DNA of 36,976 bases from Anaerolineae bacterium. GTDB taxonomy: Bacteria > Chloroflexota > Anaerolineae > B4-G1. The position numbers were made by a program, and so were the translations under genes. The stretch spans positions 1-36,976 of the forward strand of contig JASFVG010000002.1 of assembly GCA_050049955.1 (NCBI GenBank), given 5' to 3'. The notes beneath the pieces are model-generated. The model saw only the letters and a list, made by a program, of their open reading frames with translations. It ran no database searches and was not told the DNA's origin. This document shows, piece by piece, positions 11,013 to 30,326 of this stretch (position 1 is its first letter; each line of letters opens with the position of its first letter).

Positions 11013-11043
11013 CCGTCAACATCCGGCGAGGCAGTTGCAGCTA

Positions 11044-11582: not shown

Positions 11583-11641
11583 CAGGTCACGATGGAACCC
11601 GAATTGCGCCTCACGCTGCAGGGCAGAATTAAGAAGGGGCG

Positions 11642-11977
11642 CTAGAAGGCACCCACTGCCGCAATGATCTCGTCGTAGAACTTGAAGAGAGGCAAGAACC
11701 CGGCCAGATCGAAGGCCTCATAGATGCGCTCGGGCACCCTAGCCAAGACGAGTTCGCCACGGCTCAAGCGCTGGCACCTCTTCTGCGTGTCAATCAGCAC
11801 TCTCAAGCCCGCACTGGAGATGAAGTCGACGTCATCCAAGTCGAGCACGAAGTTGTGCTGTCCTTTCTCCATGAACTCATTGAAAACCGCAGCCAGTTGA
11901 GGCGCCGTAGCGCTGTCAATGCGTCCTGACGGCTCCAACACGGCACAACGGTTGAACTCTTGCGTAGTGACCTCCAT
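11642..11977 (-). CDS. STAS-domain anti-sigma-factor antagonist (RsbV/SpoIIAA-like)
   Basis: 111 aa. The conserved phosphorylatable-serine context is LDDVDFISSAGLRVL. SD AAGGAGG lies 5 nt upstream of ATG 11977. Confidence 0.85.
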   Translation of the reverse strand: MEVTTQEFNRCAVLEPSGRIDSATAPQLAAVFNEFMEKGQHNFVLDLDDVDFISSAGLRVLIDTQKRCQRLSRGELVLARVPERIYEAFDLAGFLPLFKFYDEIIAAVGAF

Positions 11978-14869: not shown

Positions 14870-15008
14870 GGGCATCGGAGCCGTGTAAGGATGGTGCGCG
14901 ATGGGGCCAGCCAGCCTGCGCAGTCGCCACACCCCCTACCGTTGACCTAGCCCGCACCGCATGCTATGATTGCGGCCAGTCGTAGCGGATCCACAGTAGG
15001 AGAGAGCA

Positions 15009-15824: not shown

Positions 15825-15927
15825 CCACCAAGTGAGAACTGCCGCAGCACTCATATCGAAAGGACATATTTGCGACCAGGGGAGACAAGCACGCAAGAAT
15901 CGCCACCACGGCCAAGCCGCGATGCAC

Positions 15928-17916
15928 CTACTGGCCCGTGACTCGGGGGGTAGATGAGCACTGAAAAAACGCCGGGCGCATCTGTCTCTCCATTTCGAAT
16001 TCCTCTGTCTCGCAGAAGGTCTTGCCACGGAAAGACCCGCACTCCTCAACGATCGCATCGAGCTTGTCGTCAGACCGCGTCACTGAAATAGTCCACGTGA
16101 CGGTCCACGTAGTCGAGTCGACAAGAAACGGCTCTTTCGCAGCCATCCTGTAACCCGTGAAACTCGCATTGGCCGTGGCAGGTGCCAATTCCGCCTCGCC
16201 TTCACTCGTGGGGGACACACTCCTGCAAGGGTAGAAGGTAGCCGTGCCGTCGCTCTCCTGGATGATATCCAGGTACATCAGGGCAAACGATATGGTTTCC
16301 GGAACTCGACCGTTGACCCAGAAGCCCAAGAAATGCTCAAGCGCAGAGCCTATGGGGCGGACGATGACGGTCTGACTCCTTGTCACCTCGTCGCCGTTGA
16401 GCTTCACGATTCGCCAGGTATAGGTAGTCGTCGTGGCAGGGTGCTCGACTCTCTCTCCCTCCGCGCCTACCACACCAACACCATCCAGGTGCACTTCACT
16501 CACGGGCCGGATATGCCAGAACAGGGTGGTGTGCTGTCCCTCGTCGATGGTTGGGGGGTCTACGCTGATGTCAATCTCTGGATTGACAGCAGCCACCGCC
16601 GTTTGAGCGACTGCTGTTTCTGCGGCGGCAGTCCCCACTAGATTCGGGGTCGCAGTCGGGGTGGGCGTGGCCGTCGCAGTCGAGGGCGAAGTGGGGACAG
16701 GCGTTGGAGTGAACGTGGGCGTTGTGGTGCCTGTCGGTGTCGGCGGCAGCGGTGTGCTGGTCGAGGTGGGGGTGTCAGTTGATGGCACCTCAGTATCGAT
16801 GGGCGGCACAGTTGCGGCAGTCGATTCCCCGGCGACCATCACAGGCGTTATGGTGTCCGTCGAACTCGCCTGACCAGGGAGCGGCCAGCCAGCCACAAGA
16901 AGACCCGCGCCGAGGAACAGCACCAGCAACGCCGCTAGGCCGGCGATCACGGGTCCCGAGGGTCGCCGCCGTCTGTGTGGCCCAGACAGCGGCTCATAGC
17001 TGATTTCAAAGGAATCGGTCGGTGGCGGTCCGCTGAGCGGTAGCATGGTGTCAAAGATCGCATTCGGCTCTGGGGCCGACTCCCTAATCGGCGGCTGAGG
17101 CGCGGCGGACAAGGAACCCTCAAGGGCATCTACCATTGCACCGGCCGTCGGATAGCGCTGGTCCCGATCCTTGGCCAGGGCACGCATCAACACGGCCTCC
17201 ACGGACCGCGGCAGGTCCGGGTTCACCTGCGAGATCCGTGGCACCGGCTCCAACACGTGCTTCATTAGTTGCTGGGTGGGGGTATCCCCTTTGTAGGGCA
17301 CCTCCCCGGCGAGCATCTCGTACAGGACGATCCCCAGAGCGTACACATCGGCACGGCCGTCGATCTCCACCCCACCCTCAACCTGTTCGGGGCTCATGTA
17401 GGCGGGTGTGCCGATGACGGCGCTGCCGGTGAAGGAGGCCGTAGCCTCGGTCAGCCGGACAATGCCGAAGTCGGAAAGGTAGGCACTTCCCCTCTGGTCG
17501 AACAGGATGTTGCCAGGCTTCACGTCGCGATGAACGACGCCTCTGGCATGGGCATAGTCCAGCGCCGCCGCGATGGGCCGCAAGATCTCGACGGATTCCT
17601 CCAGGGAGATCTCGGCCTGAGTGATGCGGTCACTCAACGTGCCGCCGGCCATGTAGCGCATGACTAGGTAGGGTTGATCATCCTGCTGGCCAAAGTCGTA
17701 GATGGGCACGATGTCCCGGTGCTCCAGAGAAGCGATGGTCTCGCCTTCATGCTGGAAACGCGCCAGGAACTGCGGGTCATGGGTGAACTGGCGGGGCAAG
17801 ACCTTGATGCCCACCTGGCGATTGGCGGAGGGGTCCTGCGCCAGGTAGACGGTTGCCATGCCGCCTCGGGCCAGCTCGGAGATGATTTGATAGCGGCCGA
17901 TCTGTAGTCTATTCAT
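15928..17916 (-). CDS. Hanks-type Ser/Thr protein kinase (predicted active) with TM helix, Pro/Thr linker and extracytoplasmic domain
   Basis: The kinase motifs are intact: VGIKVL (Lys), HRDVKPGN, DFG, GTPAYMSPE. TM helix VIAGLAALLVLFLGAGLLVAGW. PT-rich linker (TPTSTSTPLPPTPTGTTTPTFTPTPVPTSPSTATATPTPTATP). The C-terminal region of about 210 aa is Cys-containing. SD AAGGAG lies upstream of ATG 17916. Confidence 0.9.
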   Translation of the reverse strand: MNRLQIGRYQIISELARGGMATVYLAQDPSANRQVGIKVLPRQFTHDPQFLARFQHEGETIASLEHRDIVPIYDFGQQDDQPYLVMRYMAGGTLSDRITQAEISLEESVEILRPIAAALDYAHARGVVHRDVKPGNILFDQRGSAYLSDFGIVRLTEATASFTGSAVIGTPAYMSPEQVEGGVEIDGRADVYALGIVLYEMLAGEVPYKGDTPTQQLMKHVLEPVPRISQVNPDLPRSVEAVLMRALAKDRDQRYPTAGAMVDALEGSLSAAPQPPIRESAPEPNAIFDTMLPLSGPPPTDSFEISYEPLSGPHRRRRPSGPVIAGLAALLVLFLGAGLLVAGWPLPGQASSTDTITPVMVAGESTAATVPPIDTEVPSTDTPTSTSTPLPPTPTGTTTPTFTPTPVPTSPSTATATPTPTATPNLVGTAAAETAVAQTAVAAVNPEIDISVDPPTIDEGQHTTLFWHIRPVSEVHLDGVGVVGAEGERVEHPATTTTYTWRIVKLNGDEVTRSQTVIVRPIGSALEHFLGFWVNGRVPETISFALMYLDIIQESDGTATFYPCRSVSPTSEGEAELAPATANASFTGYRMAAKEPFLVDSTTWTVTWTISVTRSDDKLDAIVEECGSFRGKTFCETEEFEMERQMRPAFFQCSSTPRVTGQ

Positions 17917-18032
17917 TCTTGCTCCTTATCAGGCCTGCCGGCGGGTCAGCACGGCCTGGGAATGTCTACAGCTACCAGCCTATCTGCGCCCCTCTACTGG
18001 GCCTCGGAAGAGCCTCCTCGGCGGGTCATGCG

Positions 18033-18653
18033 TCAACTGGGGACAAACGCCAGGGTGATATTGCTGTACCCCAGGCCAATGGTGTCACTAGCTCGCAGCT
18101 CGTAGCTCCGCCCAAAGGACAGACGCTGGCCGTTGAGGAAGGTGGGGTTTCTCTCCACCAGTGCCTCCAGATAGTAGGCGCCGTCCCGCTCGGTGATCTG
18201 GGCGTGGCGGCGCGAGACGCGGCGGCTGCCCGCCAGCCACTCCAGATTGGCGGCCAGCAGCTCGTTGTGGGCCGGGTCAGCATCCGTCCGGCCAATGATC
18301 GCTGGCTGCCACTCGACGGGAAAGAGCACCTGGGTCGTGGCTTCCTGAAGCGCAAACCGGGCACCTGTGGCCAGTGGCCGGCGCAACTGGCGGAACGTGT
18401 CACGGATCCAGGTGAAGTCCAGCCGGTCGCCCGGCTGGACGCCCTGGTCCAGCAGCGTCTTGGTGCCCTCCAGCGGCCGCTGCTGTCCCTCCAGGTACAG
18501 GCCGTAGAGTTCCGGCGCCTCGCCGTCCAGTTCCTGAAACTCGCTCAGCACCTCCTCAATCAGACCGGCCACCGTCAGCGTCTTGCGCACCGCTACCCGC
18601 TGGTTGGTTTCGTCGAACACATCGACGGTCAGTTCAAGATAGTCACTCATCAT
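18033..18653 (-). CDS. Ubiquitin-like (YukD/EsaB-type beta-grasp) - FHA fusion protein
   Basis: The N-terminal roughly 80 aa (LELTVDVFDETNQRVAVRKTLTVAGLIEEVL...TLLDQGVQPGDRLDF) follow the beta-grasp pattern of the T7SS Ubl proteins. The C-terminal part is an FHA domain (AIIGRTD...VSRRHAQI...YYLEAL..NPTFLNGQRL...SDTIGLG). The ATGATG start overlaps the EccC-like stop by 11 nt. Confidence 0.65.
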   Translation of the reverse strand: MMSDYLELTVDVFDETNQRVAVRKTLTVAGLIEEVLSEFQELDGEAPELYGLYLEGQQRPLEGTKTLLDQGVQPGDRLDFTWIRDTFRQLRRPLATGARFALQEATTQVLFPVEWQPAIIGRTDADPAHNELLAANLEWLAGSRRVSRRHAQITERDGAYYLEALVERNPTFLNGQRLSFGRSYELRASDTIGLGYSNITLAFVPS

Positions 18654-21600
18654 TCGGCTCCAGGTTCAGGGTCTTGAGCTCGCGAGCCACGTTCACCAGG
18701 TCGACCGGCGACATGATGGCCATCAGGTCATTATCCATGCCCTCTGCCTTCAGTAGCGCCTTGAGCGCTCCGATGTCCACATCGTCTGGCACCGATTTCA
18801 TCAATGCTAGTGGCTGCTGCGGCAGGTCGGGCTCGTCCCCTTTTTCCTGCTCCCGAGCGACAGGTACGATGGCGGCAGCCTCGACTCCCTCACCGGTGCC
18901 GCCACGTTCTTCAGCGCCCTCTGCCTCGGCAGGTTCCTGGACGTGCTGCCAGGAAGCCTCATGCCCTGGAAAGCGCTCCCGGATCTCCTGCACCCAACGG
19001 TCCAGGCTCTCGGCCTGGCGCTTTTCATCCAGGTACGGCGTGGCCACCTGCAGCATCACGGTGCGGCCCGACCGGACGACAAAGCCGCGTCCCAGGGGCA
19101 GTTCGGCCTGGGCTAGGCTTCGCGGGATGCGGCCGTTGAGAGCAAGCACGGCGTCGTCCGACTGGAGGGCGATGCCCAGCCTGGGCATCTGGAGCTGCTT
19201 GCGCAGCTGCTCTGGTGAGCGCGTGATATGGGGCGAGCCGGCCACGACAAAGTGCAGGCCGTCCGTGCCTCGCTCGCGGGCCAGCGCCGCCAGGGCCGGG
19301 AAGGCCTCCCGCAGATCCCGAGCTTCTTCGGCAAAGGTGTCATAGTTGTCGATGATGACGAAAACTGCACGTTGGTCTTCCGCCACTTGCTGGCATTCTA
19401 CGTCCAGCGCTTCGATCAGGCCGGCCAACTCTTCGTTGTCGGTCACCGCAGCAACCACGTGTGGCAGGTCTGCCAGCGTCCGTTGCCCCCCATAGCGAGT
19501 GAGGCGCCGCTGGTAATCGATCAGAACCAGCGTGACCCCCTGCGGAGAGTACGTGTGGGCCAGGGAGAGGACCAGGCTTCGCAGCGTGGTTGTCTTTCCC
19601 GAGTTGGGCGGGCCGACCACCAGGCAGTGGGGACCCTGGACCGGCAGGTTGAGCACCCATGGCTCGAGGTTCCGGTCCTCGACGCCCAGCGGAACCTGGA
19701 TAGAAGCACCCGTCGTCGCCCGCGCCAACAGGTCGGACAGCAGAACTCGTTCCGCTAGCGTGCTGATCGGCAGCGGGCGTCTCTCCGCTGGCAGCCTTGC
19801 GGCAGCCTCCTGCAGCAACCGCACCAGATATCCCAACCGCCGTGTCTCGTCTGGCCCTGGCGACTCGCCGGCTGCGCCGACCGGCAGTGCGGCCTGGAAC
19901 GCCAGCGCCCGCCGTCCCACCTTGACGAACCCCCGCCCCGGGATGTCGTCGATGCCTCGCGCACCACGTCCGACAATGCCCGTGTACTCGGTCGGGTCGG
20001 AAAGTTTGAGCGCCAGCCGTTCGGTGAACAGGCTGTACAGCTTCCCGCCCAGGGCGCCCGGCAGTTCGGCGGAGACGGCAAAGTGCATGCCATAGGCCCG
20101 CGACTCGCGGGCCAGCGAGACCAGCATGGGCATCAGGTTGTCAAAACTCTCCCGAAACTCGGCGAAGTTGTCGATCACGACCAGGAGGGCCGGCAAGGCC
20201 CGCTCAGGCTGCCCTTGGTTGTAGCTGTAAAGGTCATCGGCCCTGGCACTGCTAAGCAACGCCTTTCGCTCCCCCAGGAACCTGTCCAGTTGTCGTAGCA
20301 GGCGCGTCACCCGTTCCTCTTCGTCGGGCGTGATGATGGCGCCAACGTGGGGCAGGTCGCGGAAGACGCCCAACTGGCGACCGCCAAAGTCGAGGACGTA
20401 GACGTGCAGCTCCTGGGGCGAGTGCGTAGCCGCCAGCGTCGTGATCATCGTGCGCAGGAACGTGGTCTTTCCCCAGCCCGAGGCGCCAAAGACGACGGCG
20501 TGTCCCCGCCGCAGGTCCACGACCAGCGGCATCTGCTCGGCGTGGTGAGGATTGTCGATCAGACCCTCCACAGCCCTCATGGCCTGGGTTTCCCAATCGA
20601 CACCTCTCCACCCACCGTCGCCGCGCAACCAGCGGGGCACGGCGCCATTGAGGACAACCGATTGCTCCATCTCGCCGGCCCTGTCGGCCACATCCAGGAT
20701 GGCGTTGATGCCCTCAGGATTCAGGTACCCGGCGTCTACTGGCGTCTGGAGGCTCATCGACTCCGGCAGGAAGTTGGGCCACGGCTTCCGCTGGGGCAGA
20801 GAGTGCTCTCGGGCCAGGTTGGCCATGGTATCGACCATCACCTCAAAGACCTTGGGCAGTTCGTCGGCGCTGCTGGCAGATCCCTTCCGTGACCGGTCGT
20901 GCCAGATGACGTCAGGCGTCTTCTCCTCCACGCCCCCGTGGAATTCGGAGCCGGTCCAGGCCACCTGGATCAACTCGACGTTCTCGTTGCCGACCTGCAG
21001 ATAGCCACGGCCGGGAATTCCCGTTGGCAAGTAGGCTGCGTCAGGCCGGCGTAGCACTTCAGAGCTCTCCTCCCGGGTCTCTACGCGCAGCGCAATACGG
21101 AACTTGATGTTGGCCCTCATCTGGTCTGTCACCCCCGTCGGACGCTGCGCCGCCAGAATGAGAGTGATGCCCAGCGCGCGGCCGAGGCGCGTGATGGAGT
21201 TGAGCTGCGCCTTGTACTCGGGGTTCTCAGCAATCATCTCGGCGAACTCGTCGATGAAGACGAACAGGTGGGGATAGGGCGCCGTCTTGAGCGCCTGCCC
21301 CTTGACCGTCACAGGATGGCCGTAGGGCGGCTCGTGCAGGCCGTTCTTGCGATAGTGGACGATGTGCTTGGACCCGGTTGCCACGTTGATGGCTTCGCGC
21401 CGGTGGATCTCGGCCATGATGGCGGCGAACATGCGCTCCACGGCGTTGCCCCTGAGGTTGGTCACGATGTCGACGCAGTGGGGCAGCTTGCGGAACGGCT
21501 CAAAGGCGGCGCCCCCCTTAAAGTCCACCAGCACGAAATTCACGATGCTCGGATCATAGTTGTAGGCCAGGCTCAGAATCATGGTCATCAGCAGCTCGGA

Positions 21601-23211
21601 CTTGCCGGACCCGGTACTGCCGGCGATCAGACCGTGGACGCCGTCGGCGTCGGCCGAGAACTTGAGCCGGCGGATATCGCCGCCCGAAAGCATACCCAGG
21701 GCCGACTGCAACCAGTCGGCCTGGTCCGGCCGCTGGCAGGATTGCCAGTTGGCCAGAATCCGCTGGCGAAGCTCCTGTGCCGTCGTGACCTGCAGCATAT
21801 CCAGCATCAGGACACTGCGCGGCAGGTCGGCACCATAGCTTTCGCGCACGCGCAGGGGTTCCAGATAGCGCGCGAATTGCTCCAGCGCCTGCGTACTGCG
21901 GATCACGTCTGCCCGGCCGGCGTGTCGGGCGGTGTTCACGCCAACCTCAGCGAAGCGGAAGCCGATCTCCTCCCCCGTCTGGCCCTCGCCCTTGGGCATG
22001 GAGGTGAGCTCAATGACCGCCTGGCATCCACCTGGTACCAGGCCCAGTTCGGGAACCAGGAAAAGGATCGCCGCCCCCAAGCGCGAGCCTTCGGCCATGA
22101 GCAGGGAGATGCCGGGGTCGCTCTCCAGTTCGGCCAGGGCTGACTCTGGAGGCACCGTCGCCAACATGTCAACCACCACCAGGAGGAACGGGCGGGTTAC
22201 GTCAGCATCCTGATCCTCCTCACGCAGCCGCATCTGCCGCTCCTCCAACACGGCTCGTAGCCGCCGCAAGAAACGGAAGGCTTTGCTTTGGTCTCTGTCA
22301 CCGTCTCGATCGGACTGGTCCTCGAAGCACAGAGCATCTCGCGACCCTTCGTCGCCGCAGTGAGGCAGCTGGCTCAGCCAGCGCCAGGCGCTGCGGGCGC
22401 TATGTAGTCCGAGGATGTACAGGCCAGCGTCAGTTGGAGCGTGAAAGGCACTATAGTGGACCAGCAACGCGCCCATGAAAGCATAGGCATCCTGCGCCGA
22501 CCCGCTGACGACGCCGAGGGCATCCTGGGCACATTCCACCTCGTTCCGCTCGGAAGCCGAAGGGCACAGGCGGATGGTGATGGCCACGTCACCCAGTACG
22601 CACGAGTCCTCGGCCAGGCGCATGGCACTTCGCACCAGTGGGTCTTCGGGGCCGCTAGGTTTCGAGAGCGCGTAGACGACCGTGGATGGCCGCGTGCCCA
22701 GACCGAGCCGCAGTGCACCAAAGTCGGGGTCGCTGGGGCGGCGTTCCCAAAGGCGAGTGCCCAGCCGCCCCTTCTGGTTCGCGTCCAGCTCACCCCGATG
22801 GGCCTCGTAGGCGATGCGCAGGACCTGGGACGGATCAGGGTAGTTGTGGCGATAGAACCGGCGCTGGATCCCGTGCTGGGTCGCCATCTCCTTGCGCAGT
22901 TCGATCAGCCCTTCCAGGTAGGCGGCCTGCCTTGCCCGTCTGCGCTTCCTCCCTTCGTAGTGGCTGTGGAGTGCCATGCCCATCGAAACGACGACCGAAA
23001 TGGCCATAGGGATCATGATCAACAGGTTGCGTCCGTTCCCAGAGATGGACATCAGCACGTAGCCGACAATGGACACCAGCGGCATGAAGACCTGGACGAG
23101 CGGCCGACTGGGGTTCCTCTCTTCTTCCGGTGGATCGGGAATCCCGACTTCACCGCTGGGTAGACCGGGCTGCAGCCGCGGCGGGCGCTCGATGTATCGA
23201 ACAGTGGACAT
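18643..23211 (-). CDS. EccC/EssC-like type VII secretion FtsK/SpoIIIE-family ATPase (2 TM, degenerate D0 domain, three P-loop domains)
   Basis: EccC-style N-terminus RYIERPPRLQPGLPSGEVGIPDPP, followed by two TM helices. D1 has Walker A GSTGSGKS (nt 21598-21621) and Walker B FVFIDEFAE. D2 has GASGWGKT and LLVVIDNFAE. D3 has GPPNSGKT and VFVIIDNYDTF. Only D1 keeps the catalytic DE, as in characterised EccC/EssC. The start is placed at ATG 23211 (AGGA 8 nt upstream). ATG 23220 and TTG 23298 of the track are alternatives. Confidence 0.9.
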   Translation of the reverse strand: MSTVRYIERPPRLQPGLPSGEVGIPDPPEEERNPSRPLVQVFMPLVSIVGYVLMSISGNGRNLLIMIPMAISVVVSMGMALHSHYEGRKRRRARQAAYLEGLIELRKEMATQHGIQRRFYRHNYPDPSQVLRIAYEAHRGELDANQKGRLGTRLWERRPSDPDFGALRLGLGTRPSTVVYALSKPSGPEDPLVRSAMRLAEDSCVLGDVAITIRLCPSASERNEVECAQDALGVVSGSAQDAYAFMGALLVHYSAFHAPTDAGLYILGLHSARSAWRWLSQLPHCGDEGSRDALCFEDQSDRDGDRDQSKAFRFLRRLRAVLEERQMRLREEDQDADVTRPFLLVVVDMLATVPPESALAELESDPGISLLMAEGSRLGAAILFLVPELGLVPGGCQAVIELTSMPKGEGQTGEEIGFRFAEVGVNTARHAGRADVIRSTQALEQFARYLEPLRVRESYGADLPRSVLMLDMLQVTTAQELRQRILANWQSCQRPDQADWLQSALGMLSGGDIRRLKFSADADGVHGLIAGSTGSGKSELLMTMILSLAYNYDPSIVNFVLVDFKGGAAFEPFRKLPHCVDIVTNLRGNAVERMFAAIMAEIHRREAINVATGSKHIVHYRKNGLHEPPYGHPVTVKGQALKTAPYPHLFVFIDEFAEMIAENPEYKAQLNSITRLGRALGITLILAAQRPTGVTDQMRANIKFRIALRVETREESSEVLRRPDAAYLPTGIPGRGYLQVGNENVELIQVAWTGSEFHGGVEEKTPDVIWHDRSRKGSASSADELPKVFEVMVDTMANLAREHSLPQRKPWPNFLPESMSLQTPVDAGYLNPEGINAILDVADRAGEMEQSVVLNGAVPRWLRGDGGWRGVDWETQAMRAVEGLIDNPHHAEQMPLVVDLRRGHAVVFGASGWGKTTFLRTMITTLAATHSPQELHVYVLDFGGRQLGVFRDLPHVGAIITPDEEERVTRLLRQLDRFLGERKALLSSARADDLYSYNQGQPERALPALLVVIDNFAEFRESFDNLMPMLVSLARESRAYGMHFAVSAELPGALGGKLYSLFTERLALKLSDPTEYTGIVGRGARGIDDIPGRGFVKVGRRALAFQAALPVGAAGESPGPDETRRLGYLVRLLQEAAARLPAERRPLPISTLAERVLLSDLLARATTGASIQVPLGVEDRNLEPWVLNLPVQGPHCLVVGPPNSGKTTTLRSLVLSLAHTYSPQGVTLVLIDYQRRLTRYGGQRTLADLPHVVAAVTDNEELAGLIEALDVECQQVAEDQRAVFVIIDNYDTFAEEARDLREAFPALAALARERGTDGLHFVVAGSPHITRSPEQLRKQLQMPRLGIALQSDDAVLALNGRIPRSLAQAELPLGRGFVVRSGRTVMLQVATPYLDEKRQAESLDRWVQEIRERFPGHEASWQHVQEPAEAEGAEERGGTGEGVEAAAIVPVAREQEKGDEPDLPQQPLALMKSVPDDVDIGALKALLKAEGMDNDLMAIMSPVDLVNVARELKTLNLEPNDE

Positions 23212-23287
23212 GGTGTGCATCCTAGTGTTCACCCCATCGGTATGGGAGCCGCTCGTGCATCTGGCTACACGGTCAGGTCCCCGTTGG

Positions 23288-24361
23288 CTACCTGCCAAGA
23301 GCGGCAGCTAGCAGGACCAGCACGGTGACAGCAAGGGCCGCGGCCAGGACGATAGCAAGGGTGCGCCAATTGGGCCGTGGCTCCCTGCCATCCTTCGGCA
23401 CCGGAGGCACGCTGACCTGCAGTTCCCTGGCCAGCGTAAGCACGTCCGGCTGGCGTCGCCGGTAGTCCTTGCTGACTGCCCGCTCAACGATCTGTGGGAT
23501 GTTCTTGAGATCAGGCCGGTTGATGGCCGAGAGTTCCGAGTGGAGCACGTCGTGAGCGACTTCCGCTTCAGCCCGCAGGCGGAACGGATATAGCGGCCGC
23601 CCGGCCAACATCTCGTACAGGATCAGTCCCAATCCATACACATCGCTGAATGCCCCTAGCCGACCCCCACGCGCCTGGAGCAACTCGGGAGCCACGTAGG
23701 CCGGGAAAGCGAGGCGGCGATGCCAGTGCTGCCCCGCGTCTGCCGGGGCCGTTACTACGCCCATGTCAAGCAGAATTGGGCGTGGAACCCCCTCTGCGTC
23801 GCGACGCACCAGTGTCATCTCAGGGCCAAGGCACAGGTGCAGGCGTCCAGCCTGGTGCATCAGCGTCACGGCGTCTGCCAGGCTCAACGTCAACCACACA
23901 GCGTGCCGGTACCAGGGCTGCGGATCTTCCCGGAGCAGGTCTCGTAGGGTTCTGCCCTTGATGTGAGCAAACACGGCGTAGCAGAAGGTCCGATCGCCAA
24001 GCACGGCCCTGCCGTAGGGATAGTCGTCCACGTCAGCTCGGGCATGCGCCGGGAGCAAGGTGGGGAGAGCTGGATGCTGTCGTTTCTGCCTTTGCAGAGC
24101 CATCAGGAATCCAGCCTCCCGCCCTAATCGCTCCTCGAAACCTTGGTGCGCGACCTTGATCAGGACCTTCTGGTCCTCACGCTCCGCTTCGTAGATGGCC
24201 GCCGCCGGCAGTACGGTGAGTAGCTTGATGATATCCGTCTCGCCCAGCGACTCACCGCACTCGAGGACGATCGGTTTGTCGTCCGTGGCGCAGTGGCTCT
24301 CCTGGCACCACAGGCTACCCACCGGCGCCTCGCGCCAGCAACGCAGGCAAACCTGTTTCAT
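23288..24361 (-). CDS. Zinc-ribbon / protein-kinase-like pseudokinase with a C-terminal TM anchor
   Basis: N-terminal CLRCW...CQESHC (four Cys). The kinase fold is recognisable (VLIKV, DMG, YVAPE, DVYGLGLILYEMLAG). The catalytic loop reads HLCLGPEM (nt 23816-23839) instead of HRDLKPxN, and no Gly-rich loop is present. The C-terminal TM helix is TLAIVLAAALAVTVLVLLAAAL, with only 2 residues after it. Confidence 0.7.
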   Translation of the reverse strand: MKQVCLRCWREAPVGSLWCQESHCATDDKPIVLECGESLGETDIIKLLTVLPAAAIYEAEREDQKVLIKVAHQGFEERLGREAGFLMALQRQKRQHPALPTLLPAHARADVDDYPYGRAVLGDRTFCYAVFAHIKGRTLRDLLREDPQPWYRHAVWLTLSLADAVTLMHQAGRLHLCLGPEMTLVRRDAEGVPRPILLDMGVVTAPADAGQHWHRRLAFPAYVAPELLQARGGRLGAFSDVYGLGLILYEMLAGRPLYPFRLRAEAEVAHDVLHSELSAINRPDLKNIPQIVERAVSKDYRRRQPDVLTLARELQVSVPPVPKDGREPRPNWRTLAIVLAAALAVTVLVLLAAALGR

Positions 24362-24468
24362 GGTGTCGATCTGTCCCTTTGGTCAGCGACAAGCCGCGGG
24401 CTATGGTCACAGAGGTCCATCGACCGCGTCGCCGGAACCCACCTCATCTTCGCACCTCGAGGAGATAC

Positions 24469-24762
24469 TCAGTGAAACCTGGTCGCGCCCAGAGCATCTC
24501 CGTGCTCATAGGAACGGATCGCCGACTCGAGGTCTGCACTCAGTTCAGCGCACTTGCCGGCGTACCTGTCGACCATCGGCTTCAGCGTTTCAAGGTATTC
24601 GGCGTGAGCTGCCGCGCCAACCGCACCCGTGAAGGCGGCAGCCTTGAGGACAGCGATGGTCGTCCCCATCGCCTTGCTGATTTGCTCAGCCTTCTCACCA
24701 ACTGAGTAGAACTGATCGGCCATCTTCTTAACAGCATCCACGTCCATGTGCACATCTGCCAT
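24469..24762 (-). CDS. WXG100-superfamily-like small helical protein (no WxG; C-terminal YxxxD motif)
   Basis: 97 aa with a predicted helix-turn-helix hairpin. The central turn is AFTGAVG in place of WxG. The C-terminus SYEHGD fits the YxxxD/E T7SS export motif. Strong SD GGGAGG upstream. Confidence 0.55.
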   Translation of the reverse strand: MADVHMDVDAVKKMADQFYSVGEKAEQISKAMGTTIAVLKAAAFTGAVGAAAHAEYLETLKPMVDRYAGKCAELSADLESAIRSYEHGDALGATRFH

Positions 24763-24825
24763 GGTAACCTCCCTGGGAGAGCCAGCTCGCGACAGTCTCT
24801 GACCGGGTTGAGCTCCCGGACGAAC

Positions 24826-25176
24826 TCACGTTCCGTGATAGATCTTCTCTGCCAGTTCTGCGAACTGGTCGGCGACTTGAGCTGCGGTTCTATCCGCTTC
24901 GTTTATGATGTCCCGAGCGCTGTTTATCCCCTCAACCTTCCTTCTGAAGCGGTCGATGATGCTCTCCGACTCAGGAAGGAAGGTGGAACGGCATTCCTGG
25001 ACAAAGAGCTCTGCACCAGCTCCTTCCCAGATGCCACCTTTCTCGACGCGAGTGACCATGTCCTGGATTGGCTTCATTACATCTTCAGCCCACCCTTGCT
25101 GAAGTTTGTTGATCCGTCCCACAACCTCGTCAACTGAGGGATTGACAAGCTTCAAGATACCCGACAGTAGCCCCAT
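24826..25176 (-). CDS. WXG100 family protein
   Basis: 116 aa starting MGLLSGILK. The canonical central motif is GGIWEGAGAELF. AGGAGG lies 6 nt upstream of ATG 25176. The longer track ORF (to 25413) overlaps the neighbouring WXG gene out of frame and is rejected. Confidence 0.75.
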   Translation of the reverse strand: MGLLSGILKLVNPSVDEVVGRINKLQQGWAEDVMKPIQDMVTRVEKGGIWEGAGAELFVQECRSTFLPESESIIDRFRRKVEGINSARDIINEADRTAAQVADQFAELAEKIYHGT

Positions 25177-25189
25177 CGTTCGCCTCCTG

Positions 25190-25486
25190 TTACTGATAGA
25201 ACTCACCAGCTTCTTTATCAGCCTCTTCCATCGCCCGCTTCGCATACAGGATGTCTTTCGCAAGTTCCGCGTGCTTCTCGGCCAGGCTCTCCATCGCCCT
25301 GGCCATCGCCCGGCAGCCCTGAGTGAACTTCTCGCCAGCCGAGCCCAGTAGGGCTCCATCCTCCAGTTGCTGGGCAATACTGAACACTTCGCTCTTTGCT
25401 GGCCCCAGGGCATCGGCGGCCCCGGTGTAGGCCCCGTGCAGCTCGTCCATGAACTCCATGTCCATACGGATTACATCTTCAGCCAT
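25190..25486 (-). CDS. WXG100-like protein (degenerate motif LLGSAGEKF)
   Basis: 98 aa, helical hairpin length. The central turn is GALLGSAGEKF, with the Trp replaced by Leu. SD AAGGAGG upstream. It lies immediately upstream of the canonical WXG gene (13-nt gap), the pairing expected for heterodimeric Esx-type partners. Confidence 0.6.
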   Translation of the reverse strand: MAEDVIRMDMEFMDELHGAYTGAADALGPAKSEVFSIAQQLEDGALLGSAGEKFTQGCRAMARAMESLAEKHAELAKDILYAKRAMEEADKEAGEFYQ

Positions 25487-25513
25487 GTCTACCTCCTTAG
25501 GACAGTTGTTCTA

Positions 25514-25577
25514 CTGCTGCGGGCCAAGAGTCCGTCCGCGAGGCCAGGACTCTGGGACAGATGGTGGCCCGCCGCAG
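25514..25577 (-). promoter_or_regulatory. Structured intergenic element (bipartite hairpin) between the first and second WXG100-like genes
   Basis: gcgggcca (25519-25526) pairs with tggcccgc (25565-25572). agagtcc (25527-25533) pairs with ggactct (25547-25553). An outer ctgc/gcag pair sits at 25514-25517 and 25574-25577. There is a 13-nt apical loop and an 11-nt internal loop. Confidence 0.4.
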
Positions 25578-25582
25578 GTAGT

Positions 25583-25888
25583 CTATGATCCAGTTCGAAC
25601 GTTGTGGGCGGCTTCTGCTTCTCCAGTCGCAGTATCAAGAATCTCCACAATCTTGTTGATGCCCTCGATACCTTGTTCCAGGGCATCCATCATACGCTCC
25701 CGACCCATTGCCACCTCATAAGCCTCGTCCCAGAACGAGTCTGCTGCGTCACCCTTCCACATCTTGTGTAGAGAATTCATTGCTAACGTAGTCCTGTTGC
25801 AAGGTTCCGCGAGGTCATGCCATACGTGTCTGAGTTTCGTGCCTATCTCCTTCAGCGCCTCGAGATCAGCCCGAATTGTGTCTGCCAT
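25583..25888 (-). CDS. WXG100 family protein
   Basis: 101 aa with central motif KMWKGDAADSFW (W-x-G). SD AGGAGGAGG upstream of ATG 25888. It is the first gene of the four-gene WXG block. Confidence 0.75.
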   Translation of the reverse strand: MADTIRADLEALKEIGTKLRHVWHDLAEPCNRTTLAMNSLHKMWKGDAADSFWDEAYEVAMGRERMMDALEQGIEGINKIVEILDTATGEAEAAHNVRTGS

Positions 25889-26132
25889 GGGTCCTCCTCC
25901 TGAGTGATGTTCCCCAGCCCTTCTCTCGATGGGTTTAGAACCAACCTACCGTGACCTCCAGTGTACCTACTGTGTGTATTCGTCAGTTCTCATCACCTCC
26001 TCGCAAGCACCGAAGCTGTCGTCAGAGCCTGGGCGAACCAGACTCCATGCCCCGCGCAGGTCTCCGAGCAATAGGCATCGGCTTCCTTCCTTCCCGACTG
26101 CGCGTACCCGCGACCCCGAGAGGCCATCCCGC

Positions 26133-27761
26133 CTACCGCCGCCTTGCCGGCTCCAAGACCAGGTGCGTTTCTCGGCCAATGCCGACCCGTGTGCGGGCCG
26201 TGATGTCCAGAAGCACAGGGCTCTCTGCAGCGATGCGCTCGCCGTTTACGTAGGTACCGTTGGCGCTCAGCTTGTCCACAATGTAGAGGCCGCGTTGGCC
26301 GAAGCGGATCTCGGCGTGGCGCCGCGAGACGCCCGTGTCGGTGGTGAGATCCAGGTCACACTCCCCTCGGCCGATGGTGAACGGAAAGCGCACCACATCG
26401 ATTCGCTCGCCCACTCGGCCCTGGTCGGGAAAGGCCTCAACAGTCACGGCAAGCCGCGGCGGGGCCGCCAGAACACGCTGCTGCGTCGTCGCCGGCTGGC
26501 GTTGGGACTCGCGCCCCACGGATGGTGGGTTGAGCGGCAGCCCTGCCGTCTTGGAGGCGCTCAGCCCTCCGGCCTGCATCAGCGGTGTGCCACTGATCCG
26601 CCTTTCCCACAGGCTGCGGAAGACCAACCAGCCCACCACGGCCAGAATGATGAAGGCTATGGTCACCGGTATCACCGGATTGGCTCGCAGCCCGTTCATG
26701 ACGACCTCCCCAAGCCCAGGTGGCCTGGGCGGCACGTAGGTGGTCTCGCCCGCTACGCTGGCTAGCGTTTGGCCCTCCGCGTCGAGGGCCTCCACCACGA
26801 CCACGTACTCCCCGGGCGAGAGCAGGGCCAGCGGAACAGTGATGGGCGGTGCGTCGGTCGCCTGCGCGTTATGCATCATGGCCACTTCGTTCTTGTCGGG
26901 ATGGATCAGCGAGACCCGATACTCCCGCACCCGCTCGTTGCTCTCTACTTCTAGGTCCACAAGCAGAGCTGGGACGTCGTGGTCGAAGTGAAACAAGGGC
27001 TGGGTCATTGCGGGCAAGGGCAGCTGGTAGGTTAGGACGTCTTCGATGGTGGTCAGTGTGCTGCCCGCTGCATCCAACGCCTGAACCACGACCAGGTATT
27101 GACCTTCGGCCACGCTGTCGAGCGATATGGTGATGGGAGGTGTACCAGCCGCCTCGACCCGCTGATCGAGAGTCACCACGTTCGTCCCTTCGCCCTTCAA
27201 GATCACCCGGTAACCGGCGATCTTGACGGCGTCCACCGTCTCCATGTCGATGTTCAGCGCCCTCGCCTCCAGATCGAGGGTGAATAGCAGAGCCCCAATA
27301 TGCACGCCCGTCAGGTCAGGGGCATGCACAAACTCGCGCTCTGCTGAAATGGGACTGCCCTGCTCTGAGATCAGAGGCATCCCATCCGGAGCGAACGCCA
27401 TGACCTCAACCCGATACGTCTGACCGGTGATCAGCCCGGCCGCCTCCAGTTGAATCGTTTGGCTGGCACCCGGCTGCGCGATGGCATACCGTTGCACTTC
27501 GACCCCTAGTTGGTTCCACAAGACGACCTGCAGGCTGCCAATCGCCTCGTGATGAGCCAGCGCCAGATCGAGTTCGTAGATGTCCCTCGCGGCATCATAT
27601 CTGACGCCAGTCAGGCTGACACTGGTAGGTACGGGCTGGTCGGACTGGGCCCTCACAGGCACCAGCAGCGCCGGCCCCAGCACCAGCAGCAACGTCCAGG
27701 CCACCACGCGTGTCCACCTCAAAGCAAACATCGAAAACAGGCGTCCCTTCATTGTGCCCAT
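26133..27761 (-). CDS. Single-pass membrane protein: signal/anchor, three extracytoplasmic ~95-aa repeats, TM helix, cytoplasmic FHA domain
   Basis: Signal-like segment WTRVVAWTLLLVLGPALLVPVRAQS. Three internally similar modules lie at about nt 26733-27626 and end in ...GQTYRVEVMAFAPDG, ...GQYLVVVQALDAAG and ...GEYVVVVEALDAEG. TM helix PVIPVTIAFIILAVVGWLVF (nt 26619-26681). FHA domain FPFTIGRGECDLDL...VSRRHAEI...LYIVDKLSANGTYVNGERI (nt about 26160-26399). The start is placed at ATG 27761 or 27752. The track extension to 27995 overlaps the FG-GAP gene. Confidence 0.75.
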   Translation of the reverse strand: MGTMKGRLFSMFALRWTRVVAWTLLLVLGPALLVPVRAQSDQPVPTSVSLTGVRYDAARDIYELDLALAHHEAIGSLQVVLWNQLGVEVQRYAIAQPGASQTIQLEAAGLITGQTYRVEVMAFAPDGMPLISEQGSPISAEREFVHAPDLTGVHIGALLFTLDLEARALNIDMETVDAVKIAGYRVILKGEGTNVVTLDQRVEAAGTPPITISLDSVAEGQYLVVVQALDAAGSTLTTIEDVLTYQLPLPAMTQPLFHFDHDVPALLVDLEVESNERVREYRVSLIHPDKNEVAMMHNAQATDAPPITVPLALLSPGEYVVVVEALDAEGQTLASVAGETTYVPPRPPGLGEVVMNGLRANPVIPVTIAFIILAVVGWLVFRSLWERRISGTPLMQAGGLSASKTAGLPLNPPSVGRESQRQPATTQQRVLAAPPRLAVTVEAFPDQGRVGERIDVVRFPFTIGRGECDLDLTTDTGVSRRHAEIRFGQRGLYIVDKLSANGTYVNGERIAAESPVLLDITARTRVGIGRETHLVLEPARRR

Positions 27762-27948
27762 CTTCCCCAGGGCGGTCCAGCCACGGAAGGCATTGTGGCC
27801 ATGGATCGGCAAACCCATGCCGCGGACCGGGACGCTGATCGCGCGGACTGGCGCGCGCCTTGCCGCGGGGGGCTGGATCCGGGCTTCGTTTCTGCTCCCC
27901 ACAGGGTCAAGAGACGGGGCGCACAGCGAGGTACTCTGTCTGACATCG

Positions 27949-29691
27949 TCACGAGACCCTCCCAGGTCTCTCTTGCGCGGTCGAACCCCGCCCATCGGAC
28001 GGGGATTGACGCTGTATCAACGGTAGGTAGACCCGCCGCCTCACCGGCCCGACTACGATCAGAGTAGCTCCAAAGCCATCTGCTTCCTCCGCGGTGCCCT
28101 CGATGCCCGGGCTGTCCTGGTGCCACATCTGGTCCTTGTCAGCCGACAGGCCGCTGGACGAGCCGTACAAGACGTTGACGGCGCCAGCGTTCGTTATGGC
28201 TGGGCTGGCCACGTCCTCTCCCGGAACCCCCACGGCCAGGTCGGCGTGACCATCCCCGTCAAGATCGCCCGAAGCCAAGGCAGATCCAAAGTAGTCCATC
28301 TGTTGAGCCACGCCGATGACCCCTGCACTGTCCTGATACCATAGCTGATCCCCCGTGGCGGTGAGTCCCGCGCGTGAGCCGTACAGGACGTTCACAACAC
28401 CGGCGTCTGCCACCTCTGGGTTCCCAACATCCTCATAAGGGACACCCACCGCCAGGTCGGCGCAGCCATCTCCGTCCAGGTCGCCAGCAGTCAAGGCGGA
28501 CCCGAACCGATCGCCGAGCTGAGCCACGCCACCAACGCCCGGGCTGTCCTGGTGCCACATCCGGTTCCCCGGGACGGTGAGCCCTACGGACGAGCCCATC
28601 AGGATGTTTACAGCACCTCCACCTGGCATAGGCAGTCCTCCGGCCGAATCTCCCGGCACACCCACGGCCAGGTCGAGATAACCGTCGCCGTCAAAGTCGC
28701 CGGTGGCCAAGGCAAACCCGAACTCATCAAACTCCCTGGGCGTGCCTTCAACGTCCGGACTGTCCTGGTACCACATTTGGTCCCCCATGGCCGAGAGGCC
28801 GTCGGACGAGCCGTATAGGACGTTCACGGCACCCGCATCTGTCACTTCTGGGTTTCCAACATCTTCATGCGGAACACCTATGGCCAGGTCGGCATAGCCG
28901 TCTCCATTCAGGTCACCGGCAGCCAGTGAATACCCAAACCAATCTCCCCACTCGGCCACGCCAACAGCTTCTGGGCTGTTCTGGTGCCACCACTGGTTTC
29001 CGACGGCGGTGAGCCCTTGGGATGAGCCGTATAGAACATTCAAAGCGCCAGCGTCTCCCAAGCCCTCGACATTGTCGAATGGGACGCCGACGGCCAGGTC
29101 GATGTAGCCATCCCCGTCAAAGTCGCCAGCGGCTAGAGCCAGCCCGAACCCATCCCCTGCCTCCCCGGCGCCCTCAATGCCCGGGCCGTCCTGGTACCAG
29201 AGCTGGTCTCCCACAGGGGACAGACCTGCGACCGAGCCATACAAGACGGCTACGGCACCAGCGTTTTCCACTTCCGGGCTCCCCAAGTCTTCATGCGGGA
29301 CGCCCACAGCCAGGTCGACGTAGCCGTCCCCGTCGAAATCGCCCGCGGTCAATGCACCACCGAAGCGATCGCCACCTTCAGCCCAGTCCTCGACGTCGTT
29401 GGCGTCCTGGTGCCATAGCTGGTCCTCCGCAGCGGTGAGCCCCGCGGAGGAGCCGTACAGGACGTTCACAGCACCGACATCGTCTAGTTCTGGATGCTCA
29501 CTACCATCCAGTGGGACACCTATGGCCAGGCCGGCGTAGCGTTCTCCGGCAGAGGCGGGAGAGAACCGATGATCGCCGCCGGCACCGCCGCCGTGTATCG
29601 GCATTGGGCGCACGGCGAGGGCTGCCCACCAGTTCAAGAGGAAACACAGGCACCCAGCGCTCCTGAGGACATAACTTCTCTTTCTACGCAT
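27949..29691 (-). CDS. Secreted FG-GAP (integrin-alpha-like) repeat protein, 7 repeats
   Basis: Signal peptide (SAGCLCFLLNWWAALAV). Seven repeats follow the pattern FGxALAxGDxDGDGYxDLAVGVPxEDxG....AGAVNVLYGSxxGLTAxGDQxWHQDSPGV and include DxDGDG Ca-binding-type loops. SD AGAGG upstream of ATG 29691. Confidence 0.85.
   Translation of the reverse strand: MRRKRSYVLRSAGCLCFLLNWWAALAVRPMPIHGGGAGGDHRFSPASAGERYAGLAIGVPLDGSEHPELDDVGAVNVLYGSSAGLTAAEDQLWHQDANDVEDWAEGGDRFGGALTAGDFDGDGYVDLAVGVPHEDLGSPEVENAGAVAVLYGSVAGLSPVGDQLWYQDGPGIEGAGEAGDGFGLALAAGDFDGDGYIDLAVGVPFDNVEGLGDAGALNVLYGSSQGLTAVGNQWWHQNSPEAVGVAEWGDWFGYSLAAGDLNGDGYADLAIGVPHEDVGNPEVTDAGAVNVLYGSSDGLSAMGDQMWYQDSPDVEGTPREFDEFGFALATGDFDGDGYLDLAVGVPGDSAGGLPMPGGGAVNILMGSSVGLTVPGNRMWHQDSPGVGGVAQLGDRFGSALTAGDLDGDGCADLAVGVPYEDVGNPEVADAGVVNVLYGSRAGLTATGDQLWYQDSAGVIGVAQQMDYFGSALASGDLDGDGHADLAVGVPGEDVASPAITNAGAVNVLYGSSSGLSADKDQMWHQDSPGIEGTAEEADGFGATLIVVGPVRRRVYLPLIQRQSPSDGRGSTAQERPGRVS
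28060..29580 (-). repeat. Coding tandem repeat, 216-bp (72-codon) period, about 7 copies (FG-GAP blades)
   Basis: The anchor string gccaggtcg (gccaggccg in the last copy) recurs at 28235, 28451, 28667, 28883, 29093, 29309 and 29525. The spacings are 216, 216, 216, 210, 216 and 216 bp. Confidence 0.8.
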
Positions 29692-29700
29692 CGCCGACCT

Positions 29701-29976
29701 CTATCTCTCGATCGTCATTCGTCCAGTTGTACTGGGATCTTTCCTGCTAGATGGTTTGGATCCTTGGCGCGCTAACTCAACCCTGAGGAAGGAGAGCAGC
29801 GCCTCCAGACTGCCGAATCCCTGCCGGCGTCGCTCGCCAAAGACCTCCTCCACGGCGAACCGCCAGGGACTTGCCCGATCTGTCCCACTATCCCGCTCCT
29901 GCCAGCAGCGCAGCAAATAGGCGCGATACCCCTCATATTCGTCCTTGCGCATCAGCAATCGCCTGAGATTGGGCAT
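29701..29976 (-). CDS. Small hypothetical protein (91 aa), first gene of the minus-strand cluster
   Basis: SD GAGGGAAGAG upstream of ATG 29976. The stop is 7 nt before the FG-GAP start. The sequence looks like a real protein (YRAYLLRCWQERD...PWRFAVEEVFGERRRQGFGSLEALLSFL). I recall this pattern from small proteins in Chloroflexota/Cyanobacteria but cannot name a family. Confidence 0.5.
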   Translation of the reverse strand: MPNLRRLLMRKDEYEGYRAYLLRCWQERDSGTDRASPWRFAVEEVFGERRRQGFGSLEALLSFLRVELARQGSKPSSRKDPSTTGRMTIER

Positions 29977-29991
29977 CTCTTCCCTCGATTC

Positions 29992-30020
29992 TTGTCAAAA
30001 GCAATAGACGCTGCTATAGT
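29992..30020 (+). promoter_or_regulatory. Candidate sigma70-type promoter TTGTCA-N17-TATAGT facing the SARP-STAND gene
   Basis: -35 TTGTCA at 29992-29997, an exact 17-nt spacer, and -10 TATAGT at 30015-30020. The predicted transcription start near 30027 gives a leader of about 300 nt before ATG 30327. Confidence 0.4.
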
Positions 30021-30326
30021 CGCCTACAATCGCGTCGCTGATGCACCGTCACCGAACCCCAATACTCGCCATTCTACGTAGGTGTTCACACAACAACGGG
30101 CCTAACACGAAGCTCTCAGGTCACGGTCACCGACATCTCAACGTACGGGGTTCGTCTGGTTCGTCGCTCCACTGGACGTCAACCCTCGGAGTGCACCGTT
30201 GGTGGGAAAGCCAGTCCGTGACTACGGTGCCATCTTTCGCCTTCATCAGGTGCGATTCGTCCATAACCTATCATCAAGCGCTTTGGCAACCCTTAGACGG
30301 TCATTAAGCAGTCCCTGGGGGAAGGA

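Follow-up and report, generated by a model that had tools for sequence, protein, structure and literature searches.

A putative Chloroflexota-specific type VII-like secretion locus with few membrane parts and candidate phosphothreonine control

So far as we know, work on type VII secretion has been confined to Actinomycetota and Bacillota. Chloroflexota of the Anaerolineae type are filamentous and abundant in sludge, sediments and soils, and we know of nothing on their protein export or competition. Clusters of WXG100 and FtsK/SpoIIIE genes (ESX-like) have long been predicted in Chloroflexi (PMC4010439, PMC3935865, PMC3482391, PMC10765036). Among type VII secretion systems (T7SS), the variants T7SSc-j, catalogued in Bacillota and Actinomycetota, include FHA-less ATPases, membrane kinases, PPM phosphatases, vWA proteins and separate FHA proteins (Garrett, Higginson & Palmer, 2024; PMC11217815); the survey that describes them is based on RefSeq and does not mention Chloroflexota. 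In the T7SSb of Bacillus subtilis, cryo-EM shows that YukD binds the ATPase YukB and helps it to associate with YukC, a pseudokinase (PMC12637312). Contact between the YukB FHA region and the pseudokinase domain of YukC does not depend on phosphorylation (PMC9600267), and the FHA domains of EssC are not canonical phosphothreonine binders (PMC11217815, PMC9600267). Here we examine a 36,976-nucleotide stretch of Anaerolineae bacterium DNA (assembly GCA_050049955.1, contig JASFVG010000002.1; "the window" throughout), in which positions 15928-27761 of the minus strand carry an EccC-like ATPase, WXG100-like proteins, a YukD domain, kinase-fold proteins and FHA domains. From sequence comparison and structure prediction, we conclude that this locus probably specifies a type VII-like secretion system that is peculiar to Chloroflexota, minimal in its membrane parts and assembled under phosphothreonine control.

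Positions 15928-29976 hold eleven co-directional minus-strand open reading frames (ORFs), confirming the coordinates of an earlier note on this DNA, and its claim that T7SS hallmarks lie there together with phospho-signalling parts was borne out by Pfam and the ORF calls. The genes assigned to the locus, and one motif discussed below, are as follows (aa, amino acids).

15928..17916, minus strand: Hanks kinase, 662 aa; Pfam Pkinase 4.5e-47, with HRDVKPGN and DFG
18033..18653, minus strand: YukD-FHA soluble adaptor, 206 aa; Pfam YukD 32.0 bits (cutoff 27), FHA 1e-11
18643..23211 (ORF to 23298), minus strand: EccC-like T7SS ATPase, 1522 aa; three FtsK_SpoIIIE stretches, 1.2e-77
23288..24361, minus strand: tail-anchored pseudokinase, 357 aa; Pfam Pkinase 1.9e-11, HLCLGPEM replacing HRDLKPEN
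24469..24762, minus strand: small protein W4, 97 aa; Pfam T7SS_ESX_EspC 24.3 bits (cutoff 23.5), WXG100 25.8 bits, just under cutoff
24826..25173, minus strand: small protein W3, 115 aa; no Pfam match, family profile matches EsxA
25190..25486, minus strand: small protein W2, 98 aa; Pfam WXG100 25.2 bits, just under cutoff
25583..25888, minus strand: small protein W1, 101 aa; Pfam WXG100 just under cutoff
26133..27761 (ORF to 27995), minus strand: FHA membrane protein, about 542 aa; Pfam FHA 1.6e-13
26574..26594, minus strand: juxtamembrane SGTPLMQ motif of the FHA membrane protein; coordinates checked by translation

Homologues of the ATPase, the best at 67% identity, occur in metagenome-assembled genomes (MAGs) of Ardenticatenaceae, Anaerolineales, Promineifilaceae and Caldilineaceae, and the first three neighbourhoods inspected have the same gene order. 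When one genome per species was scanned with the pseudokinase alignment, 107 relatives were found, 80 of which were kept. The window proteins were searched against all ORFs of the related loci, and counts were taken from the 51 loci with full 10-kb flanks. The ATPase was found in 49 of these, YukD-FHA in 49-50, W2 in 49, and W1, W3, W4 and the FHA membrane protein in 48 each; every core part is present together in 44/51 loci, all from Chloroflexota. The arrangement is far beyond chance, and the adjacency first noticed in the window stands as a conserved one. Two of the eleven ORFs do not share in this conservation:

27949..29691, minus strand: FG-GAP protein with six repeats (Pfam) and a hydrophobic N-terminus
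29701..29976, minus strand: 91-aa ORF; no family match

Neither has a counterpart in any of the 80 related loci, so both were rejected as parts of the locus and are neighbours only; the eleven genes grouped in the earlier note thus become a nine-gene unit here, with a conserved core of eight genes. When the remaining flank ORFs were clustered, the sole further widespread family was a diverged W1, and no conserved polytopic membrane protein was found. Domains of EccB, EccD, EccE, MycP, EsaA and EssA, said in the earlier note to be missing, were indeed found in none of the large ORFs of the window, and none of these components is conserved within 10 kb in the 51 related loci. The closest relative with available DNA is locus L084, whose ATPase is 65% identical to that of the window.

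By family, as judged from sequence, the EccC-like protein is a secretion ATPase of the EccC/EssC type and not FtsK. NCBIfam scores are 681 bits for EssC, 474 for EccCa and 367.7 for EccCb (cutoff 346.55), against 79 for FtsK and 25 for TraB; the protein passes the EccCb cutoff, and its EssC and EccCa scores are just below their equivalog cutoffs. Among PDB sequences its best solved relative is Thermomonospora curvata EccC (8e-86, across all three ATPase domains), followed by B. subtilis YukB and mycobacterial EccC5 (~1e-60), while FtsK matches a single domain at 1e-16. Likewise, T7SS ATPases in a plasmid collection align to 70-92% of the protein, compared with 12-16%, one domain, for FtsK of E. 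coli, Ralstonia and Sinorhizobium. NCBIfam, PDB and the plasmid collection therefore agree in placing the ATPase with EccC/EssC, and its identification as an FtsK/SpoIIIE DNA translocase was rejected. Two N-terminal transmembrane (TM) helices directly follow a conserved RPPR[IL]xPxLP motif, residues 12-290 match the N-terminus of EccC3 (TM plus DUF, 5e-6), and Pfam finds no FHA domain anywhere in the protein, N-terminus included; the description of this N-terminus as actinobacterial in style and FHA-free was accurate. Each of the three FtsK-type P-loop domains has a Walker A motif (D1 GSTGSGKS, D2 GASGWGKT, D3 GPPNSGKT). Only D1 has a DE Walker B (FVFIDE, with the catalytic Glu), D2 and D3 having DN, which fits the usual view of EccC, with one catalytic domain and two regulatory ones.

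The generic P-loop families that Pfam reports would also be present in an FtsK/TraB-type DNA translocase or conjugation apparatus, or in anti-phage defence based on a kinase and an ATPase of the FtsK/HerA type, and PADLOC gives domain-level matches of the ATPase to mad8 (194 bits) and SspH (174 bits) and of the kinases to PD-T4-6. These scores are far under those for EssC and EccCa/b, as are those for FtsK and TraB. Six of ten proteins have no PADLOC match, the YukD-FHA, WXG-like and FHA membrane proteins among them, and the window contains no relaxase, replication or recombinase genes. The defence reading was dropped because PADLOC matches only generic ATPase and kinase domains, and we regard this alternative as a whole as very improbable.

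Two side observations concern the ATPase family. The tail after D3 (18643-19050, EccC residues ~1395-1522) is acidic and of low complexity with a short helical end, and is poorly conserved (column identity ~0.2). Longer EccC-like proteins also occur in Chloroflexota, including a 2847-aa ORF adjoining the pseudokinase gene (L081, 1255-9798) and six proteins of 2100-2350 aa with 38-45% identity (P0012, P0013, P0019, P0026, P0033 and P0042); these suggest extra ATPase domains or a second subtype.

For the small proteins W1-W4, families were gathered from related loci and then used in profile searches. The W1 profile matches EsxA of G. thermodenitrificans (3ZBH) at 6.6e-10 and the W3 profile matches the same protein at 5.7e-7, and W2 matches M. 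tuberculosis EsxB/CFP-10 at 2.3e-5, in each case over the full length. W-x-G is invariant in W1 (W44, G46) and W3 (W49, G51) and absent from W2, which has no Trp in the turn, and from W4. Matches of the W4 profile to PDB are weak and dominated by designed helical bundles, and its placement comes instead from the hhalign match to W2 and from the EspC model of Pfam. The proposal of four WXG100-like proteins is thus upheld by profiles that match EsxA/EsxB or EspC, although an actual W-x-G is present in two only. By hhalign, W2 and W4 are paralogues (98.9% probability), as are W1 and W3 (99.3% probability), and these two paralogous pairs, with the EsxA/EsxB matches, make the four genes look like a duplicated EsxA/EsxB-type pair. 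By profile similarity, W1 is of EsxA type, W2, its predicted partner, is of EsxB/CFP-10 type, and W4 is an EspC/EsxB-like hairpin. The W4 tail, Y-x-x-G-D...G-x-x-R-F, is YxxxD-like, with Y85 in 28/35 sequences and G88, D89 and F96 invariant.

In many related loci, genes between those for the FHA membrane protein and the hairpins encode 290-410-aa proteins that begin with a WXG100 domain and have an unassigned C-terminal part (e.g., L022 3218-4135, L036 7370-8467 and L083 1664-2899). The window has no such gene at this position, which is a 244-nt gap. These proteins are candidates for larger cargo or toxins; WXG100-fused proteins are typical of T7 cargo (PMC3482391).

The abundance of signalling domains at the locus (kinase, pseudokinase and two FHA domains), with no toxin, immunity gene or LXG-type cargo in the window, could point instead to a membrane signalling complex, or a cell-cell or developmental complex of filamentous Chloroflexota, whose WXG100-like proteins stay intracellular or septal and have no dedicated export. 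Esx proteins affect sporulation in Streptomyces, which is in keeping with such a role. The complete EccC architecture of the ATPase, the T7-type C-terminal motif of W4 and the WXG100-fused proteins of the relatives all argue for export, and we judge a purely signalling complex to be a rather remote prospect.

Both FHA proteins are conserved core parts. The AlphaFold2 (AF2) model of the soluble adaptor (pLDDT 91.2) shows a beta-grasp followed by an FHA beta-sandwich. In Foldseek searches, the beta-grasp is closest to ubiquitin/ISG15 (TMt 0.77-0.79) and the FHA domain to phosphopeptide-bound FHA domains (DgcB, Rv0020c and GarA; TMt ~0.8). A YukD/EsaB-type ubiquitin-like component is present as the N-terminal domain of the adaptor, as judged from a Pfam score above cutoff and the beta-grasp of the model, and the earlier assignment is retained. 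Across 53 adaptor sequences, the FHA residues G121, R122, S147, R148, H150 and N169 do not vary. Adaptors of Anaerolineales are longer, with two FHA domains each. The FHA membrane protein consists, in order, of a signal or anchor, an ectodomain of Ig-like repeats, one TM helix, a long, disordered, low-complexity cytoplasmic linker and, at the C-terminus, an FHA domain, and its family conserves the GR, SRxH and NG residues. Most relatives have in addition an N-terminal VWA domain (e.g., L004 13365-15557), which is missing from the window copy and from its close relative L084. Both FHA families thus appear from their residues to be of the canonical phosphothreonine-binding type, unlike the FHA domains of EssC; in NCBIfam the two domains weakly match the TagH model (36 and 29 bits). 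Immediately past the TM helix, on the cytoplasmic side, 51/56 members of the FHA membrane family have the motif [ST]-G-T-P-[VLF]-[ML]-Q. FHA domains usually prefer Thr with Leu or Met at +3. In the window the motif is SGTPLMQ, a candidate phosphothreonine docking site with Leu/Met at +3.

The pseudokinase gene lies between the ATPase and hairpin genes. Its AF2 model (pLDDT 92.8) has the bilobal Hanks-kinase fold, preceded in sequence by an N-terminal, zinc-ribbon-like CxxC-x10-C-x4-C motif that is common to 55 orthologues. The same 55 orthologues keep the beta3 Lys, alphaC Glu, DxG Asp and APE, and have HLC in place of HRD and lack the catalytic Asn. A TM helix at residues 335-353 ends four residues from the C-terminus, a placement at the extreme end that the 55 orthologues share, and there is no ectodomain. 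The family is well separated: orthologues score E <= 1e-65 and generic kinases ~1e-13, a sharp gap, and a profile search of 1.84 billion representatives recovered 782 proteins (50% identity representatives) at E <= 1e-30.

The pseudokinase had been thought to occupy the niche of EssB/YukC. Its position at the locus is similar, but it is not of that family: Pfam YukC and TIGR EssB do not match it at E <= 0.01, the best PDB sequence matches are PknB/PknA, and Foldseek of the model also gives PknB/PknA first (E ~1e-15 to 1e-16), with EssB/YukC not among the top 50. Homology to EssB/YukC was thus rejected by Pfam, NCBIfam, PDB sequence search and Foldseek. On sequence and model, the protein is an independently degenerated PknB-type kinase, and an analogue of EssB/YukC at best. 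The orientation of its gene varies. Among 73 loci it is co-directional with EccC in 49, including the window and Anaerolineales, and inverted in place in 24, where it is divergent from the EccC and hairpin genes (L004-L010 and others, Ardenticatenaceae included).

The remaining signalling protein, the Hanks kinase, has an active-type kinase domain, a TM helix at residues 323-341 and a C-terminal ectodomain of ~320 aa. The NCBIfam model PknB_PASTA_kin matches it with 338 bits over the kinase domain only, and its ectodomain has no homologue in the 80 related loci. The claim of an active Hanks kinase holds in that HRD and DFG are present; it does not hold for the kinase as a core component, since only 23/51 full loci have a separate kinase with HRD and DFG within 10 kb, and the kinase is therefore an accessory part. 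Its gene precedes that of the FHA membrane protein in L084, on the upstream side, whereas in L086 it is divergent and its product has a solute-binding ectodomain.

These parts can be assembled into a working scheme. Family membership suggests the roles of ATPase motor and hairpin cargo: the EccC-like protein, with the TM helices and P-loops seen in its sequence, would be the membrane motor and probably the channel too, and W1-W2 and W3-W4 heterodimers would be exported as cargo, along with the larger N-terminal-WXG100 proteins in relatives. By analogy with EsxB-EccC, the last ATPase domain may recognise the YxxxD-like tail of W4 as a signal. The YukD domain of the adaptor would bind EccC and help to join it to the tail-anchored pseudokinase, mirroring the YukD-YukB-YukC contacts of Bacillus T7SSb; since the adaptor FHA domain keeps its phosphothreonine pocket, unlike EssC, a phosphorylation-dependent version of the same assembly step would be expected. 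Assembly or activation would then depend on threonine phosphorylation by the membrane Hanks kinase, which belongs to the locus in the window and in roughly half of the relatives and would work in trans in the rest, its variable ectodomain perhaps sensing different signals in different lineages. The best candidate for the docking site is the juxtamembrane [ST]-G-T-P-[VLF]-[ML]-Q of the FHA membrane protein.

The main rival to this scheme accepts the same export machine, and takes the FHA domains to be constitutive, phosphorylation-independent scaffolds and the kinase to be an unrelated or loosely coupled envelope sensor. It has a precedent in the phosphorylation-independent contact between FHA region and pseudokinase in T7SSb (PMC9600267), and it is favoured by the lack of a kinase in the 10-kb flanks of 28/51 loci, by differences in kinase position and ectodomain between loci, and by the lack of a conserved Thr in the pseudokinase. 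Harder to reconcile with simple scaffolding is the full set of phosphothreonine-binding residues kept in both FHA families, across >50 diverged sequences, unlike EssC, and the nearest folds are phosphopeptide-bound FHA domains. Active kinases also recur in or beside the locus far oftener than an unrelated gene would, joined in some loci by a PP2C phosphatase. We therefore consider constitutive scaffolding unlikely, though less so than the other alternatives.

Several points nevertheless weigh against phosphothreonine-controlled secretion. The evidence consists of sequence and predicted structure, from which we infer export, phosphorylation and protein contacts. All 80 kept loci are from Chloroflexota MAGs, none of them a cultured strain, and the single-sequence WXG100 scores are under the curated Pfam/TIGR cutoffs. 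No Thr is conserved in the alignment of the pseudokinase family, and because of this the phospho-site is a guess. The separate kinase varies in position and ectodomain where it is present, and a PP2C phosphatase is found in ~9 related loci. Finally, the negative results for membrane components cover the window and the 10-kb flanks, and further membrane parts could be encoded elsewhere in the carrier genomes.

Of the described systems, T7SSc of Bacillota (TscA-G) is similar in several respects. It has an FHA-less ATPase of the EccC-like branch, a WXG100 protein, a ubiquitin-like part of YukD type, a kinase-fold protein in the membrane and a vWA domain (found here only in relatives of the window), and EccB/D/E and EsaA/EssA are missing from both. 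By match score, the best ATPase match in the plasmid collection is of T7SSc type, from Brevibacillus laterosporus (434 bits, 27% identity, 92% coverage), and the Streptomyces EccC among the matches listed reach <=327 bits. The differences are considerable. No FHA protein is described for T7SSc (PMC11217815), whereas two are core parts here; TscD has an active site and an ectodomain, whereas the pseudokinase lacks the catalytic Asp and Asn and is tail-anchored; and the vWA of TscE is cytoplasmic and free-standing, whereas in relatives of the window it is N-terminal to the TM helix of the FHA protein, and in the window it is absent. T7SSc has one small hairpin protein compared with four, and neither TscF (PPM phosphatase) nor TscG (EspG-like) has a recognised equivalent in the window. 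ATPase identity to T7SSc is only ~27%.

The Brevibacillus record (L085, NZ_CP011076.1, 1190444-1218601, on a 1.38-Mb replicon) is unannotated, and its genes were called and scanned by hand. This T7SSc-type locus encodes an EspC-like protein, a VWA protein, two unassigned proteins, YukD, an FHA-less EssC, a WXG100 protein and a protein of 707 aa that combines WG repeats with an N-terminus resembling a divergent kinase. The match between the window pseudokinase and this kinase-like protein is weak (hhalign, only 48% probability), and orthology of the two was rejected.

With T7SSb the locus shares a set of modules: an FtsK-type ATPase, a YukD ubiquitin-like part, FHA domains, a membrane pseudokinase and WXG100 proteins. 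The two FHA domains of the Anaerolineales adaptor also equal the number on EssC. The modules are distributed differently, since EssC itself carries its FHA domains, whereas here they are on the adaptor and on a separate membrane protein and appear to be canonical binders. EssB/YukC has an extracellular C-terminal domain, in contrast to the PknB-like pseudokinase without ectodomain, and EsaA and EssA are not found in the window or conserved in the flanks. The likeness to T7SSa/ESX is in the EccC-type N-terminus and domain order of the ATPase, and in hairpins that form pairs of non-identical proteins, one partner having a YxxxD-like tail. Unlike T7SSa/ESX, the window has no EccB, EccD, EccE or mycosin, nor are these conserved near the 51 loci, and a soluble FHA protein, rather than EccD, carries the ubiquitin-like domain. 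The earlier description of the locus as a reshuffle of both types is apt as an analogy of domain content; as a statement of homology it is unsupported, the pseudokinase being PknB-like and the FHA domains canonical, unlike EssC. A separate case is L086, in which a 1412-aa subtilisin-type (Peptidase_S8) protein is encoded directly downstream of the YukD-FHA gene (15419-19657, on a 3.76-Mb contig). It recalls the ESX mycosin; it is a single case, not conserved in other loci.

Two further pathways use similar signalling parts. The type VI threonine pathway (PpkA, Fha1 or TagH, and PppA) likewise has a membrane Hanks kinase and FHA proteins encoded next to the locus of a secretion ATPase; the present locus has no type VI genes, and the resemblance is one of logic only. 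In mycobacteria, a pathway attributed to Gee et al. 2012 reportedly involves the MviN pseudokinase, FhaA and PknB, with FhaA recruited by phosphothreonine on the pseudokinase in the control of cell-wall precursor export. That pathway and the present locus both bring together a membrane pseudokinase domain, an FHA protein and a PknB-type kinase. They differ in the phospho-site, which is on the pseudokinase in MviN and, as a candidate, on the FHA membrane protein here. The type VI parallel drawn in the earlier note agrees with ours, and was already published for T7SS variants (PMC11217815).

The locus is an uncharacterised variant, specific to its phylum, of a kind of system for which examples from other Gram-positive phyla have been catalogued before. 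The novelty first claimed for it is correspondingly reduced: we found no description of this architecture in the literature searched, but T7SSc-j with kinases and FHA proteins (PMC11217815) and ESX-like predictions for Chloroflexi (PMC4010439, PMC3482391) were already published. What sets it apart is the fusion of YukD with FHA, a pseudokinase that is tail-anchored and has a zinc-ribbon-like motif, the VWA/Ig-TM-FHA protein and its conserved TP motif, and the duplicated hairpin pair, with no other conserved membrane part in the window and 10-kb flanks. It overturns no current view. As a compact version from a third phylum with few membrane parts, it is a useful minimal case for the requirements of a T7 channel. 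Threonine-phosphorylation switching of some T7SS has so far only been proposed, for newly catalogued variants, and FHA domains that look phosphothreonine-competent together with a conserved, mutable motif would offer a clean test of such a switch.

A broader interpretation, which we put forward tentatively and think doubtful as a whole, is that of an unnamed Chloroflexota-wide T7SS subtype with a minimal membrane set, phosphothreonine gating via GTP[VL][ML]Q and ancestral-like separate modules. Its conserved membrane parts would be only EccC, the tail-anchored PknB-derived pseudokinase and the single-pass FHA protein; the Hanks kinase would phosphorylate GTP[VL][ML]Q, and the YukD-FHA adaptor would then couple the ATPase to its membrane partners. 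Since the modules are still separate genes and the kinase fold is near PknB, such a subtype could show the origin of EssB-type pseudokinases and of the degenerate FHA domains of EssC.

The start of the EccC-like gene was corrected to 23211 (MSTVRY), and that of the FHA membrane protein is most likely 27761. The EccC stop and the YukD-FHA start overlap by 11 nt. Promoter and terminator scans of 15000-30400 gave no more sites than shuffled sequence, so the operon structure is deduced from gene spacing alone. Rfam has no match in the window. G+C falls to 0.58 across the small hairpin genes (24000-26000), compared with 0.62-0.66 in the rest of the locus.

Other large ORFs in the window encode Macro-domain, DUF4230, O-antigen-ligase-like and G5/DUF348 proteins, an M24 peptidase, a Lon protease, a PIG-L deacetylase, a solute-binding protein, a GAF-SpoIIE phosphatase with RsbW- and RsbV-type partners, and a BTAD-nSTAND1-WD40 protein. 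The GAF-SpoIIE phosphatase belongs to a partner-switching module at 7788-11977 on the minus strand, consisting of the 1074-aa protein (five GAF domains and SpoIIE/PP2C), an RsbW-type HATPase_c_2 kinase and a STAS protein. The module is probably unrelated to the T7-like locus, because the Lon and PIG-L genes, on the other strand, intervene. On the opposite side, at 30327-35171 on the plus strand and divergent from the locus, is the gene for the 1614-aa protein, which combines an nSTAND1 NTPase domain (425 bits) and 13 WD40 repeats with a BTAD-type N-terminus.

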